The translations under genes and the position numbers were made by a program. Positions 2,922-20,431 of a stretch of DNA of 24,000 nucleotides are shown here, piece by piece (the first letter of the stretch is position 1; the number at the start of each line of letters is the position of its first letter). The notes under the pieces were generated by a model. That model did not search any database and was not told the origin of the DNA. It saw only the letters and a program-made list of their open reading frames with translations. Source of the DNA: an uncultured Nitrososphaerota archaeon (GTDB lineage: Archaea; Korarchaeota; Korarchaeia; Korarchaeales; Korarchaeaceae); NCBI GenBank assembly GCA_964618805.1, contig CAZUBM010000010.1, forward strand, positions 38,839 through 62,838. Reading direction: 5' to 3'.

Positions 2922-3130
2922 ATGCCCACTGTAATGTGTCCAAGTTGCTTAGTTGAATTCGAGGTGAAAAGAAAGGACTACGAAGGGAAAGTTGATTGTC
3001 CTGCTTGCGGTGCTTCATTCACATAAAAATAGAGGAAGGAAAACTAAAACAAGCAAAGCTAGCAGTGAGCCTCAATGAAATACCGCTTTCTGAGGGGGAG
3101 CTGGAAGGTGAAGGAGAGGAAGAATGGTGA
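2922..3130 (+). pseudogene. Frameshifted paralog of the LysW-like zinc-ribbon protein
   Basis: ATG at 2922 is preceded by GGTGATC. MPTVMCPSCLVEFEVKRKDYEGKVDCPACGASFT stops at TAA 3024-3026. The -1 frame continues (H)IKIEEGKLKQAKLAVSLNEIPLSEGELEGEGEEEW* to 3130. Against copy 1 it looks like a 2-nt deletion near 3021-3026. Confidence 0.6.
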
Positions 3131-3580
3131 GAGGTGAAGATAATGTTAGAAGAGGAGAAGAAAAAGAAAAAGAAGCAAAGGGAGAAGAAAAAGAAGAAAT
3201 AGTGTGGTAAATCGAAGAATCCTCCTTTCTCCCTTTTTTAAGCGAAGTTTAGAAACAGTATCCTTTGAATACTTAACCTACTACTTTCAGCCCCTCATAT
3301 TTGCCATTTGGACGGTTTATAAAAAAAGAATAAGTTGTTGGTATTATATTCAACAAGAAAAAGGAATACGTTATGATAAAGGAGGGTTAGCCTCTTAACG
3401 ATCAAAATCCTCTCTACTGCATGGGAGATTGAGTACTATACTGCTTTAATGTTTGATATCAAGCATTATTAAGTCTTCTTTTTTGTTAAAGTCTATTTAG
3501 GAATGATTTTCTACTTCGATTCTATTTAACTAACCTATTCTTAACATCGAATAGTTCAAATCTTAACTCATCTTAATTTA

Positions 3581-10008: not shown

Positions 10009-10110
10009 GGGCCGGTAGCTCAGTGGTAGAGCGCCGCTCTCGCACTAAGAGCGACAAATCGTCGCTCTTGCGGATAGCGGAGGTCGCGGGTTCGAATCCC
10101 GCCCGGTCCA
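10009..10110 (+). tRNA. tRNA-Ala (anticodon CGC) with an intron of about 30 nt
   Basis: Acceptor GGGCCGG/CCGGTCC contains the G3:U70 Ala identity pair. D arm GCTC-AGTGGTA-GAGC, anticodon stem CCGCT/AGCGG, loop CT-CGC-A, T arm GCGGG-TTCGAAT-CCCGC, discriminator A. No CCA is encoded. Confidence 0.93.
10045..10074 (+). other. tRNA-Ala intron (near position 37/38, boundaries +/-1 nt)
   Basis: 30 nt separate anticodon-loop A37 from the 3' anticodon stem. The intron has an internal 9-bp hairpin (AAGAGCGAC/GTCGCTCTT), and its 3' GCGG pairs with anticodon-loop UCGC. Confidence 0.85.
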
Positions 10111-13798: not shown

Positions 13799-14818
13799 CT
13801 AAAACCAAGCTTCCAAACCCTCTGAAGGTGGTTTCATTTTTCTAAGTTCTTCTAAGGTTTTCTCCACCCTTTTAGGGGAAAATTCGTGTTGATTTACCAT
13901 GAAATCGTAAAGCTTCTCTTCATCAACTGGTTTAAGGGTTAAATCATAGTTATCTGAGGTAGGAGGATCCAAGAAGAACTCATAAATATCCTTTGGATCG
14001 ATTTCAAACTCCCAATTCACGTGTGAGAGGATTTCATCTAGCGTTTTATACGTTTCAACTAACTTTAAAGCCTTCTTACATCCTATCCCTTTAATCCCTC
14101 CTGGATTATAATCCGTCCCAACAAGTATGCCTATTACAATTAGTTGCTCCCTGCTGATACCTAAGTTGCCCAAAGTTTCATCTAGAAGGATCTCCTCTGG
14201 ATAGATTCTGACATATGCCTTCTCTCTCGGTAATTTTCTTCTCTCAGAGAATGTCAGATTCCTTACAAGCCTTGGTGAGCCAAATAAGAGGGAGTCATAA
14301 TCTTGAGATCCTGCTGCCCATACATCGCCTTTCTTAGCCATATAGGCTGCTTGTGCCTCTCCTTCACTTGGTGCTTGGACGATGGGTACTCCCATATATT
14401 CAAGAATCTTCTTGGCGTCCTCTATCATCTCTGGAGTTAAGGAAAGAGCTGCTTGTGCGTACTTTCTTGCTTCTTCTAATCTCCCAGCAGCCAGTGCTTC
14501 CTTCCACTTTTTCATAGCTTCTCTCCTTACCTCCTCCCTCTCTTCTACAGTCGCCCTCTTGAAAGGAGGGGGCTCCCCGTCAAACACGTATATAGGTGTT
14601 ATACCTGTTGTGAGAAGCTTAGCGGTCCTGTAAAAGATGCCGGAATGGACTGAAGTTATCTCCCCGCTGCTCGTCATTAATGGCGTTCCATCCTTCTGTC
14701 TTATGATAGATAAGAACTGATACATGGCATTAAAGGCATCGATAGCCACGGATTTTCCTTTAAGCTTTTCTAAATCTATCCTATGGGTTATAACAAGGTC
14801 ACTTATCTTAACTCCCAT
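13799..14818 (-). CDS. fen: Flap endonuclease 1
   Basis: The canonical N-terminus MGVKISDLV...AIDAFNAMYQFL starts at the internal ATG at 14818. The 46-codon upstream extension in the track is non-homologous. XPG-N/I motifs and a C-terminal PIP-like tail (LEAWF). Confidence 0.9.
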   Translation of the reverse strand: MGVKISDLVITHRIDLEKLKGKSVAIDAFNAMYQFLSIIRQKDGTPLMTSSGEITSVHSGIFYRTAKLLTTGITPIYVFDGEPPPFKRATVEEREEVRREAMKKWKEALAAGRLEEARKYAQAALSLTPEMIEDAKKILEYMGVPIVQAPSEGEAQAAYMAKKGDVWAAGSQDYDSLLFGSPRLVRNLTFSERRKLPREKAYVRIYPEEILLDETLGNLGISREQLIVIGILVGTDYNPGGIKGIGCKKALKLVETYKTLDEILSHVNWEFEIDPKDIYEFFLDPPTSDNYDLTLKPVDEEKLYDFMVNQHEFSPKRVEKTLEELRKMKPPSEGLEAWF

Positions 14819-15256: not shown

Positions 15257-15670
15257 TTAGAGTGCCTTAATTTTGATCAGAAGGTCTTCTCCTTTCTTTA
15301 ACATATTTATTATAGGTCTTGGAATATCTTTTGCTGCAGCCGTTGCTTCTATAGCTATCGTGCGGCCGTCTATATAGGTAGATTTCCTAAATACCATCTC
15401 TTTTTCGGATAAAAACTCTAGTTTAGGGGATCCACGGGCCTTAAATGAAAATCTTCTATCGCCAACTGAAATCACGACTTCTATCTGACCTCCATTCAGC
15501 AAATGCTCCTTTAACTCAGGGCAGAGATCTTTCACCGCCTTATCGGCCATTATTCCTATTATACAATCAGCTCTTATCGATATTTCAGTCTCTTTGGTGA
15601 TTTCTATCGTTGTTCCATGCATACCAGTTACGTTTGGATGCCCTCTGGCATGTATGATCTCCTCAACCAA
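15257..15670 (-). CDS. DUF371-family protein
   Basis: IHARGHPNVTGMHGTTIEITKE...ADCIIGI pattern, 137 aa. Confidence 0.7.
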   Translation of the reverse strand: MVEEIIHARGHPNVTGMHGTTIEITKETEISIRADCIIGIMADKAVKDLCPELKEHLLNGGQIEVVISVGDRRFSFKARGSPKLEFLSEKEMVFRKSTYIDGRTIAIEATAAAKDIPRPIINMLKKGEDLLIKIKAL

Positions 15671-15709
15671 TCCAACAAAATTATCTCTAATCCTAGCATA
15701 AAAAGCAGG

Positions 15710-16442
15710 ATGGTTGGAAAAGATGAAGAGTATGCTGTAAGACGAGCCAAATTAGTTGAAAGTTTGGTCAGGCAGGGAATAATCAGATCAGATTCGGTGA
15801 AAAGATCTGCTATGAAAGTCCCGAGAGAAAAGTTCGTTCCGCCAAGGCAAAGGGAATTTGCATATGACGATACGCCGCTTCCTATAGGAGAGGGCCAGAC
15901 GATTAGTGCGCCACACGGATTCCCGCCGGGGATCCGGGCGAAACATGGTGTTTATGATGAACGAACTTCTTCGATTAGAAAAAGGTATGGTAGTATTCGA
16001 AGTGGGTGCTGGAAGCGGATATCATGCAGCAACGTTAGCGGAAATAGTTGCTCCAGATGATTTGCCCTTGGAAGAGTGGGGACACGTATATTCTGCTGAG
16101 ATAATTAGAAGTCTTGCTGTAAGAGCCTGGAAAAATCTTATGGACGCAGGATATGCCGATAGAGTAAGCGTTCTTCATTGTGACGGAAGTTCTGGTTTTC
16201 CTCTGAACATCAAGGCTGATAGAATTCTAGTGACTGCAGCAGCTCCTTCCATTCCAAAACCTCTAATGGATCAGGTAAAAATAGGAGGTAGAATCGTAAT
16301 TCCTATTGGTCTGGTCAGAGGCCTGTTCTTTGCTCAAAAACTTGTAGTTGCAGATAAGTTAGGGGAGGAAAAGTTCAATATTAAGGAGGTAGCTGATGTA
16401 GCTTTTGTCCCATTAAGAGGTAGATATGGATGGAGAGGTTGA
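15710..16442 (+). CDS. pcm: Protein-L-isoaspartate O-methyltransferase, interrupted by a 28-nt BHB-type intron (exons 15710-15914 and 15943-16442)
   Basis: Exon 1 frame: ...FAYDDTPLPIGEGQTISAPH. Exon 2 frame: MVFMMNELLRLEKGMVVFEVGAGSGYHAATLAEIV...DRILVTAAAPSIP...GGRIVIPIG...FVPL. The joined ORF is 234 aa and in frame. Confidence 0.85.
15915..15942 (+). other. Candidate bulge-helix-bulge (BHB) intron within the pcm mRNA
   Basis: Hand fold. Exon helix: 15906-08 pairs with 15944-46. Central 4-bp G-C helix: 15909-12 pairs with 15937-40. 3-nt bulges: 15913-15 and 15941-43. 9-bp intron helix: 15916-24 pairs with 15928-36, closed by a GCC loop. Confidence 0.75.
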
Positions 16443-17056
16443 TAGCAAGCGGAGCAGAAGCAAAGATCTATGAAACTGATTTCTTCGGAGTTCCAGCCAT
16501 TAAGAAGGTTAGGATAAGGAAGAATTATCGAGTTTTTGAATTAGACTCTCTTCTTAGAAAGAAGAGAACTTCCAAGGAAGTAAAGGCTCTCCATAGGGCC
16601 AAGAAATTTGGAGTCCCTTGTCCTTCGATCCTAGACGTTCATGAATTCGAAATTATCATGGAAAAGATCGATGGAGTTACGTTGAGAGATTTAATAGTAA
16701 AATTAAATGAAAAAGAACTTTCTGTAGTTTCAAATCTGTTAGGCGCGATTGTTGGTAGGCTTCATAAAGCTGGCTTAGTTCATAACGATCTAACGGGTGT
16801 AAACTTCATCTTAGTGGATCGAGATAAAATATGCCTCATAGACTTTGGGCTTGTTGAGTTTTCTGAGAATTGTGAGGATAGAGCGGTGGACTTGCACGTA
16901 TTCAAGCAATCTGTAGGTGCTATCGACCCTAAAAGGAGGGATTTTATAATGAGCAAATTCCTCGAAGGATACTCTAAGGAGCTTGGGGAAAGAGCCAAAG
17001 AAGTGATTTCTAGACTTAGGACAATCGAGAGAAGAGGAAGGTATAAGATAAGGTGA
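16430..17056 (+). CDS. bud32: KEOPS subunit Bud32 (Kae1-associated atypical kinase)
   Basis: LIASGAEAKIY, small RIO-like kinase core HNDLTGVNFIL...LIDFGL, ~208 aa. Overlaps the pcm stop by 13 nt. Confidence 0.85.
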   Translation: MERLIASGAEAKIYETDFFGVPAIKKVRIRKNYRVFELDSLLRKKRTSKEVKALHRAKKFGVPCPSILDVHEFEIIMEKIDGVTLRDLIVKLNEKELSVVSNLLGAIVGRLHKAGLVHNDLTGVNFILVDRDKICLIDFGLVEFSENCEDRAVDLHVFKQSVGAIDPKRRDFIMSKFLEGYSKELGERAKEVISRLRTIERRGRYKIR

Positions 17057-19566: not shown

Positions 19567-19938
19567 TTGTTTTAGCTCCTTTCTCGTCTCTGATTCTTCC
19601 TTCTTGTACCTCTCCAGCAAGGTTTCGGTCAACTCCTTCCTTGATTTCAGATCCTCAAGGAGTTCTTCCTTGTTCCTTTTGATGAAAACGTGTCCAGCTC
19701 TTTCATAAACCTCTGTATCTCCCTTAATCTTCTCCAATTTTCTCAAAGCCTCTTCCATAGATCTGAGGTCTAGCTCAAGAGTTGTTATTTGAGTTCTAAG
19801 GGACTCAATCTTGCTAACAAGCTCTCTATATTTTGCCTGAGCATACTGCATGTTTTCATCCGAAGCCAATTGCATCACATGGATAGCTTTGATAGCAGAT
19901 CTTTTAATTTGATCCTTTCGACGAAACCTATCTCTCAA
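19540..19938 (-). CDS. pfdB: Prefoldin beta subunit
   Basis: Two coiled-coil heptad regions flank the beta-hairpin segment DTEVYERAGHVFIKRNKEE. About 120-130 aa. The true start may be an internal Met. Confidence 0.75.
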   Translation of the reverse strand: MRDRFRRKDQIKRSAIKAIHVMQLASDENMQYAQAKYRELVSKIESLRTQITTLELDLRSMEEALRKLEKIKGDTEVYERAGHVFIKRNKEELLEDLKSRKELTETLLERYKKEESETRKELKQLLESLGLV

Positions 19939-20431
19939 GTTCTACTAGCGCCGCTTTCTCCAATATGATTAGTTCTAACCTTCTTGAGCATGATGATAGG
20001 TTCTCCACGCCTAATTTCCTTGCCAAGCTTTTCATAGAACCGAATTCATTGGTCTGCACAGCTCTTAGAGCATCACACACTCTAACAGCGAGTTTATTCC
20101 AGTCCAGCGGCTTAGCTGAAATGGCTATGAAGACAACATTGTCAGTCCCTATCGGATTTGTGAATCCTAACGCTTTATGGATCTGCCTCTCCCCTGTAAG
20201 ACAGACAGCAATTTCTGACCTTAAATTTCTGGTGATATTTTTCCCCTCTTTAAAGGCTCTTAAAGCTCTATATGTTGCTATTGCCGCATGTCTATAGGAA
20301 GCTACTGATGATGATTTAATGAAGACTGTTTTAATGTCCTCTACGAACTTTTCTGGGATTTCCTTTAGGGGTTCGGTGAGCTTTAGGGACATGACAGCGA
20401 TGTACCCTTCTGAGGTTTCGAACACTTCCAC
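19928..20431 (-). CDS. cgi121: KEOPS subunit Cgi121
   Basis: SEIAVCLTGERQIHKALGFTNPIG and the C-terminal LELIILEKAALVELER match the pattern I recall from archaeal Cgi121 (EILVRASGQRQIHEAI...LEKIALIEL). Confidence 0.8.
   Translation of the reverse strand: MEVFETSEGYIAVMSLKLTEPLKEIPEKFVEDIKTVFIKSSSVASYRHAAIATYRALRAFKEGKNITRNLRSEIAVCLTGERQIHKALGFTNPIGTDNVVFIAISAKPLDWNKLAVRVCDALRAVQTNEFGSMKSLARKLGVENLSSCSRRLELIILEKAALVELER

Follow-up and report, generated by a model that had tools for sequence, protein, structure and literature searches.

Comparative evidence for a bulge-helix-bulge intron within the coding sequence of an archaeal pcm gene

Why does a gene whose product matches a well-known protein-repair enzyme from end to end fall into two different reading frames? 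The question is raised by a 24,000-nucleotide (nt) stretch of contig CAZUBM010000010.1 from an uncultured archaeon (assembly GCA_964618805.1), called the window here and used for all coordinates below, in which pcm, the gene of the protein-L-isoaspartate O-methyltransferase PIMT, is broken by 28 nt into two open reading frames (ORFs), 15617..16060 and 15906..16442. An earlier reading of the letters alone, the original prediction, had explained this break by an intron folded into a bulge-helix-bulge (BHB) structure, the substrate of the archaeal tRNA-splicing endonuclease EndA. Our analysis supports that interpretation by the site of the insert, by covariation, by selection on the exons, and by synonymous codons that are frozen. 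Judged from sequence comparison, the 28 nt at 15915-15942 would be a BHB intron in the pcm coding sequence, spliced by EndA and a ligase, with a probability of roughly 88%. The predicted parts of the gene and its precursor RNA are as follows.

15710..15914, plus strand: pcm exon 1, from Met1 to the first base of the His69 codon; the ATG at 15710 follows the divergent DUF371 gene.
15915..15942, plus strand: predicted 28-nt BHB intron, ACGGATTCCCGCCGGGGATCCGGGCGAA; its removal restores frame and motif, and orthologous inserts are present in 11 other variants.
15943..16442, plus strand: pcm exon 2, which opens with bases 2 and 3 of the His codon and runs to the TGA stop, within the ORF 15906..16442.
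15906..15908, plus strand: 5' strand of the outer exon-exon helix (h), pairing with 15944-15946.
15909..15912, plus strand: 5' strand (CGCC, exonic) of the central 4-bp helix (H), pairing with GGCG at 15937-15940; invariant in 12/12 variants.
15913..15915, plus strand: 5' 3-nt bulge, ACA, with the predicted cut at 15914/15915 (cut site after PMC12397907); invariant in 12/12 variants.
15916..15936, plus strand: intron hairpin (h') of 9 bp with the loop GCC at 15925-15927; fully paired in 9 aligned variants.
15937..15940, plus strand: 3' strand (GGCG, intronic) of the central helix; invariant in all variants despite being noncoding.
15941..15943, plus strand: 3' 3-nt bulge, AAA, with the predicted cut at 15942/15943; nt 1 and 3 are an invariant A and nt 2 is variable.
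15944..15946, plus strand: 3' strand (CAU) of the outer helix; invariant, but coding (His/Met) also fixes CAU.

The insert is GC rich, as first described (71% GC versus 42% for the window), and all base pairs originally proposed are present in the sequence of the whole BHB region, 15906-15946, which reads GTGCGCCACACGGATTCCCGCCGGGGATCCGGGCGAAACAT. The outer helix consists of G15906.U15946, U15907-A15945, and G15908-C15944, the intron helix of 9 bp between 15916-24 and 15928-36 with one U.G at 15921/15931, and the order of the strands, h-H-bulge-h' on the 5' side and h'-H-bulge-h on the 3' side, is that of tRNA BHB introns. Excision of 15915-15942 yields ...GQTISAPHMVFMMNELL... and a PIMT of 234 amino acids (aa) from the ATG at 15710 with the motif GQTISAPH|MVF. 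This spliced product matches the Pfam family PCMT from end to end (1.3e-55) and aligns with the PIMT structures 2yxe and 1jg1 with no gap across the junction. The predicted splice junction is ...GCGCCAC|ACATGGTG..., spanned by the 30-mer ATTAGTGCGCCACACATGGTGTTTATGATG. An AC/AC repeat at the borders means that deletions starting at 15915, 15916, or 15917 give an identical mRNA. According to a crystal-structure description, the EndA cut in a BHB bulge lies between its nt 2 and nt 3 (PMC12397907); the original choice of a cut after the second bulge nt agrees with this position and is the only option that retains the His.

Is the insert peculiar to this contig? Relatives were drawn from fetched contigs, a genome scan, a metagenome scan with the insert left free, and two protein searches. 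The metagenome pattern required ATGATGAA, so that the GC-rich MMDELL clade was missed and recovered later through protein search. The protein search that used the spliced product as its query brought up the C-terminal fragment of the window itself, four more C-terminal fragments, 162-179 aa long and 80-87% identical, and the 243-aa protein described below. The resulting set holds 28 insert-bearing loci with 12 distinct sequence variants, mostly from hydrothermal-vent metagenomes, and all 28 share one neighborhood: PTH2, DUF371 (opposite strand), pcm, Bud32-like kinase, Ham1, and S15. Comparison of orthologs, suggested by the original prediction as a check, places the insert at the identical codon in all 12 diverged variants. 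The closest named relatives by aRF1 and PIMT similarity are Candidatus Korarchaeota, with an aRF1 identity of 63-64%, followed by a drop to ~50%. Two intron clades can be defined: a low-GC clade to which the window belongs, with PIMT identities of 75-89% among its members, and a GC-rich clade with 23-nt introns, with ~60% PIMT protein identity between the two. In one locus of the GC-rich clade (L036, GCA_053989035.1, 757-2745), a TruD pseudouridine synthase lies between PTH2 and DUF371; the window clade has no TruD at this place, and the rest of the pcm neighborhood is conserved.

Across the variants the insert measures 23, 27, 28, or 29 nt, lengths that mostly break the frame, cover all three classes modulo 3, and rule out its being translated. 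Unspliced read-through would add tails of 2 to 63 residues that are unrelated between variants. In contrast to these lengths, a core of the form GCGCC-ACA-CGG...CCG-GGCG-ANA-CAU is invariant in the 12 variants, the hairpin between its halves being 5-9 bp long with a variable sequence and a loop that is free to vary. In the 3' bulge, any of the four bases can occupy the middle position, depending on the variant, and the nt on both sides of it are always A, a pattern that fits an intronic second nt and an exonic third nt belonging to the His codon. Cutting after the second bulge nt in silico gives QTISAPHMVFM in all 12 variants.

Covariation, computed on 9 aligned variants, points to selection on the fold. 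The RNAalifold consensus contains the central helix and the hairpin, with compensatory double changes in 5 of 13 pairs. Within the intron helix, which is 100% paired in the 9 variants, 5 of the 9 pairs have changed on both sides. Over the BHB as a whole, paired cells make up 97.8% versus 90.4% in shuffles and the covariation score is 0.257 versus 0.111, neither value being reached in any of 500 shuffles (0/500), and slid registers are at most 49% paired. The hairpin contains a G.U pair in four variants and an A.C pair in none, which points to sense-strand RNA.

Selection on the protein was examined in 8 full-length spliced coding sequences. dS is saturated among them (>1 or not computable for nearly all pairs), and omega (dN/dS) is 0.03-0.13 in both exons (exon 1, between relatives with an estimable dS: 0.01-0.13; exon 2: 0.03-0.07), indicating that pcm is functional in all intron lineages. 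The same genes provide what we regard as the strongest single sign that the insert brings with it a constraint on RNA structure. Among 57 columns with an invariant A, G, P, T, or V residue in these 8 intron-bearing genes, the codon is invariant in only 2, Ala GCG and Pro CCA, and these two form the exon strand of the central helix plus the first bulge base. Nine intronless relatives write the same residues with GCT, GCA, GCG, or GCC and with CCT, CCC, or CCA, and the His with CAC or CAT. Exon synonymous sites are frozen nowhere but at the bases that pair with the intron.

Several observations weigh against the intron interpretation. BHB geometry alone is no rarer than chance: with a scanner that defines the motif as an outer helix of at least 3 bp, a central helix of 4 bp, 3-nt bulges, and an inner helix of at least 3 bp, the window has 414 loose matches versus 450 per shuffled window, and 3 matches versus 1.3 expected when the inner helix is at least 9 bp. 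Since shuffles yield comparable numbers, geometry was dropped as evidence, and because it is so commonplace the case for an intron rests on comparison. The first argument for the intron, that structure and motif-exact excision coincide, remains suggestive but is weaker than it looks, BHB-shaped pairings being common by chance. The next-best match, at 13830-13890 on the plus strand, has an inner helix of 9-10 bp and a would-be intron of 50-51 nt. This match, antisense to FEN1 (13799..14818, minus strand) at that gene's 3' end, shows neither a frame break nor other support and is probably due to chance, which agrees with 1.3 expected matches per window.

The outer helix is the weak part of the fold. 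The RNAfold structure of 15896-15956 (-23.3 kcal/mol, z = -2.29) contains the central helix, the ACA bulge, and the 9-bp intron helix, but in this minimum free energy structure the 3-bp outer helix is displaced and the 3' bulge has 2 nt instead of 3. The middle pair of this helix is C.A in 6/12 variants, and the helix is absent from the RNAalifold consensus. As a strict hBHBh' the motif qualifies only barely: the central helix, both bulges, and the hairpin fit the description, and the outer helix, which in the window has 3 bp including a G.U, is marginal. The motif is strict at best in half of the variants and relaxed (HBh'-like) in the others. With a poorly closed 3' bulge, an endonuclease of strict specificity might not cut. 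Relaxed BHB motifs require a broad-specificity endonuclease. The endonuclease of Candidatus Korarchaeum cryptofilum is reportedly of an unusual alpha2 type with a Crenarchaea-type loop and probably has broad specificity (PMC3239211).

Two further points belong on the same side. The central helix never varies and so has conservation only and no covariation support. Public protein data contain no full-length intronless product of >76% identity, only fragments and a 243-aa read-through; this absence is uninformative because the entries come mostly from metagenomic DNA.

How would such an intron be removed? We infer EndA cleavage, ligation, and the fate of the excised intron as the steps of the following pathway. 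In the pre-mRNA, the exonic CGCC of the Ala-Pro codons would pair with the intronic GGCG into the 4-bp central helix, flanked by the 3-nt bulges on opposite strands and by the GC-rich intron hairpin. EndA would cut after the second nt of each bulge, and an RtcB-type ligase would join ...GCGCCAC to ACAUGGUG..., recreating the His codon and the frame of the 234-aa PIMT, with the excised 28-mer probably circularized. Without splicing, translation would produce nothing but an N-terminal fragment, truncated and ending in a junk tail. EndA leaves 2',3'-cyclic phosphate and 5'-OH ends, which are joined by RtcB. Neither endA nor rtcB was found within the 24,000-nt window. That tRNA-type splicing machinery is present in the organism is implied by a tRNA-Ala(CGC) that the window encodes at 10009-10110 (plus strand). 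This tRNA gene, whose 30-nt intron lies at 37/38, is detected by Rfam (64 bits) and aragorn -i and missed by the default ARAGORN run. The best 4-bp helix of this tRNA, CGCA/UGCG, has bulges CUA and GAU and an 8-bp hairpin and is out of register with the splice sites. Its functional BHB must be relaxed because the CGCA/UGCG helix misfits the splice sites of a 7-nt anticodon loop. The tRNA-Ala intron was therefore unusable as an internal reference for the cut sites, and the literature position was taken instead.

Could the BHB be cleaved and the halves left unligated, either to downregulate pcm or to have two polypeptides translated separately? Such a 3' product, with AC-AUG-GUG at its 5' end, would resemble a leaderless mRNA for a 165-aa C-terminal part, exon 2 beginning 2 nt before a conserved Met codon. 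Gene callers predict a C-terminal protein of 160-179 aa in every relative, and yeast TSEN mRNA targets are cleaved without ligation (PMC10485636). However, the enzyme has a single domain, aligns with monomeric PIMT structures without gaps, and would be divided within its invariant GQTISAPHMV, and the 5' product would be a nonstop mRNA. BHB cleavage products held together by their flanking helices are the natural substrate of RtcB. Purifying selection is equally strong on the two exons, indicating that both halves are needed together. We consider cleavage without ligation quite improbable.

Translation offers another way to keep the insert in the RNA: the ribosome might shift frame, hop over the hairpin, or terminate and reinitiate at the downstream AUG. 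A stable hairpin sits at the frame break with an AUG directly after it, and a 27-nt variant is in frame and annotated as a single 243-aa protein (P0001). Inserts of 23, 27, 28, and 29 nt, however, would demand different events in sister lineages, the read-through tails are 2-63 unrelated residues, and the frozen GGCG, GCG, and CCA as well as the kept 3-nt bulges would be left unexplained. Ribosomal hopping from CAC at 15914-16 to CAU at 15944-46 was rejected, for it resumes in the wrong frame. Recoding of whatever kind is scarcely credible here. A dead insertion, that is, a palindromic DNA element or its footprint that pseudogenized pcm or a sequencing or assembly artifact, would account for a palindromic, GC-rich, frame-breaking insert flanked by a 2-nt AC repeat, but is effectively refuted by its presence in >20 independent assemblies from different samples and pipelines, by omega of 0.03-0.13 in both exons at saturated dS, by compensatory changes with G.U but no A.C pairs, and by the lack of another copy in 172 kb, which speaks against a dispersed repeat.

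Other classes of elements were also excluded. A covariance model built from the variants finds no copy beyond the pcm site in 172 kb of sequence, ruling out a dispersed or mobile repeat. A group I or group II self-splicing intron is ruled out by the 28-nt length and the lack of an RNA-model match: Rfam scans at gathering and E-value thresholds give no hit at 15800-16050, all hits in the window being tRNAs. No site resembling an intrinsic terminator was found in 15600-16100, where the hairpin is followed by GGGCGAAACAUGG and not by a T-run.

The spliced-intron interpretation has a close precedent in cbf5, whose pre-mRNA intron was reportedly described by Watanabe in 2002 and Yoshinari in 2006. 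The cbf5 introns of Desulfurococcales and Sulfolobales are 16-44 nt long, have a relaxed BHB, are in some cases in frame, interrupt a catalytic codon, and have been gained and lost (Yokobori 2009, PMC2738675). Both systems consist of a tiny BHB-type intron in a coding sequence (16-44 nt in cbf5, 23-29 nt in pcm) that splits a codon of a catalytic or most-conserved motif, with lengths free of any multiple-of-three rule, some variants being in frame. Both motifs are partly relaxed, both introns are too short for a homing enzyme, and each is confined to one clade with intronless sister lineages. They differ in the host gene, an RNA pseudouridine synthase in contrast to the protein-repair gene pcm, and in lineage, Desulfurococcales/Sulfolobales versus Korarchaeia-related metagenome-assembled genomes (MAGs), cbf5 of Ca. 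Korarchaeum cryptofilum having no intron. For cbf5, splicing has been demonstrated in vivo as well as in vitro, whereas the pcm intron is predicted from sequence; the pcm BHB core, in turn, is invariant over about 40% protein divergence.

cbf5 was originally named as the only well-established BHB intron in an archaeal protein gene. This needs correction, for HVO_1309 of Haloferax volcanii carries another mRNA intron in its 5' untranslated region (5'UTR) (Schwarz 2020, PMC7714728), with spliced RNA seen in transcriptome sequencing according to PMC10485636, and this is the only other archaeal mRNA case listed in reviews (PMC7714728; PMC10485636). It resembles pcm as a BHB-bearing mRNA substrate of an archaeal splicing endonuclease, and differs from it in lying in a 5'UTR, with the reading frame unaffected, and in being euryarchaeal, with an alpha2 enzyme.

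The archaeal introns of tRNA and rRNA, whose hBHBh' form was reportedly set out by Marck and Grosjean in 2003, share with pcm a pair of 3-nt bulges that lie on opposite strands and are separated by 4 bp, the cut position, the h-H-B-h' order of the 5' strand, and, presumably, the enzymes. Unlike them, the pcm mRNA lacks an anticodon stem that could serve as a stable outer helix, and the 5' half of its central helix consists of codons, which freezes synonymous sites. Some likeness extends to IRE1/RtcB splicing (XBP1, 26 nt; HAC1), in which a short coding intron is removed by a protein endonuclease and an RtcB-type or tRNA ligase, with no spliceosome and with a change of frame. IRE1, however, is an unrelated endonuclease (kinase/RNase) that acts on twin stem-loops instead of a BHB, and XBP1/HAC1 splicing is stress regulated and yields an alternative protein, so that the pcm intron stands outside that family.

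The proposal that pcm represents a new case held up: in full-text literature searches, BHB did not occur together with isoaspartyl or PIMT in any paper, and nothing published later described further BHB introns in coding sequences. Good evidence for BHB-type mRNA splicing within an archaeal coding sequence has so far existed only for cbf5, and by the comparative data pcm appears to be the second case; the host gene and the lineage are new, and the mechanism would be the same as in cbf5. Endonuclease splicing of archaeal coding mRNA has rested on very few cases, cbf5 (2002) and one 5'UTR, to which the pcm intron adds a second host coding sequence, a lineage nearest to Korarchaeota, and an unusually clean evolutionary signature. 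It would also be a concrete substrate for the study of EndA recognition outside the tRNA scaffold.

When was the intron gained, and why is it still there? In a neighbor-joining tree, the intron-bearing pcm genes are monophyletic and sister to the intronless L021/L025 with a bootstrap of only 27%, making a single gain in the ancestor of the Korarchaeia-related group plausible at that level of support. P0007-P0010 are intronless as well. Such introns can persist across deep divergence within an active-site motif, probably because only a base-exact deletion could free the motif from them.

The intron also leaves its mark on gene annotation. Gene callers turn exon 2 into a separate protein of 160-179 aa, both in the window organism and in relatives (P0002-P0006, P0241, P0256, P0257). 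In L002/L003 (GCA_037917635.1), a 27-nt in-frame intron gives the annotated 243-aa PIMT, P0001, with a spurious GFQLEPGRN, and these nine extra residues lie exactly between H and M of GQTISAPH|MV. Other relatives have pcm annotated as separate proteins of 82 aa and 160-179 aa, a systematic annotation error. BHB-aware annotation of archaeal MAGs is needed because callers split or mistranslate such genes, and the combination of a frame break, a BHB, and frozen synonymous sites is a signature usable to screen for further cases.

Downstream of pcm, the ORF of a Bud32-like kinase (16430..17056) overlaps the pcm stop by 13 nt, with Ham1 and S15 close behind it, and Cgi121 lies nearby on the minus strand (19928..20431). 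Unspliced pcm terminates early, at 16060, and splicing could affect any translationally coupled expression of the KEOPS kinase. Does the intron do more than ride along? Three such readings may be considered. In the first, it is a maintained checkpoint: synthesis of PIMT could be tied to EndA/RtcB capacity or to temperature-dependent folding of the GC-rich BHB, and the checkpoint could extend through translational coupling to the Bud32-like KEOPS kinase. In the second, the excised RNA circle of 23-29 nt may have a function of its own. In the third, the Korarchaeia-related lineage has several BHB introns in protein genes, and that of pcm would be only the first to be noticed. We consider readings of this kind unlikely.

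Another frame break is found elsewhere in the window, in a tandem of small paralogous zinc-ribbon ORFs (CxxC...CxxC) at 2674-2880 and 2922-3131 (both plus strand), with acidic tails ending in EGE(G)EEEW. The first ORF, of 68 aa, is intact. In the second, a TAA at 3024 ends translation after 34 aa, and the homologous C-terminal half (HIKIEEGKLKQAK...EGEGEEEW) is found in the -1 frame; CGASF|HIKIEEGK matches CGALMYVKISAGK of the first ORF residue for residue. The second ORF carries either a recoding site or a 1-nt frameshift, the latter meaning a pseudogene or an error of sequencing. At about 3090-3200 lies a purine-rich tract of GAA/GAG.

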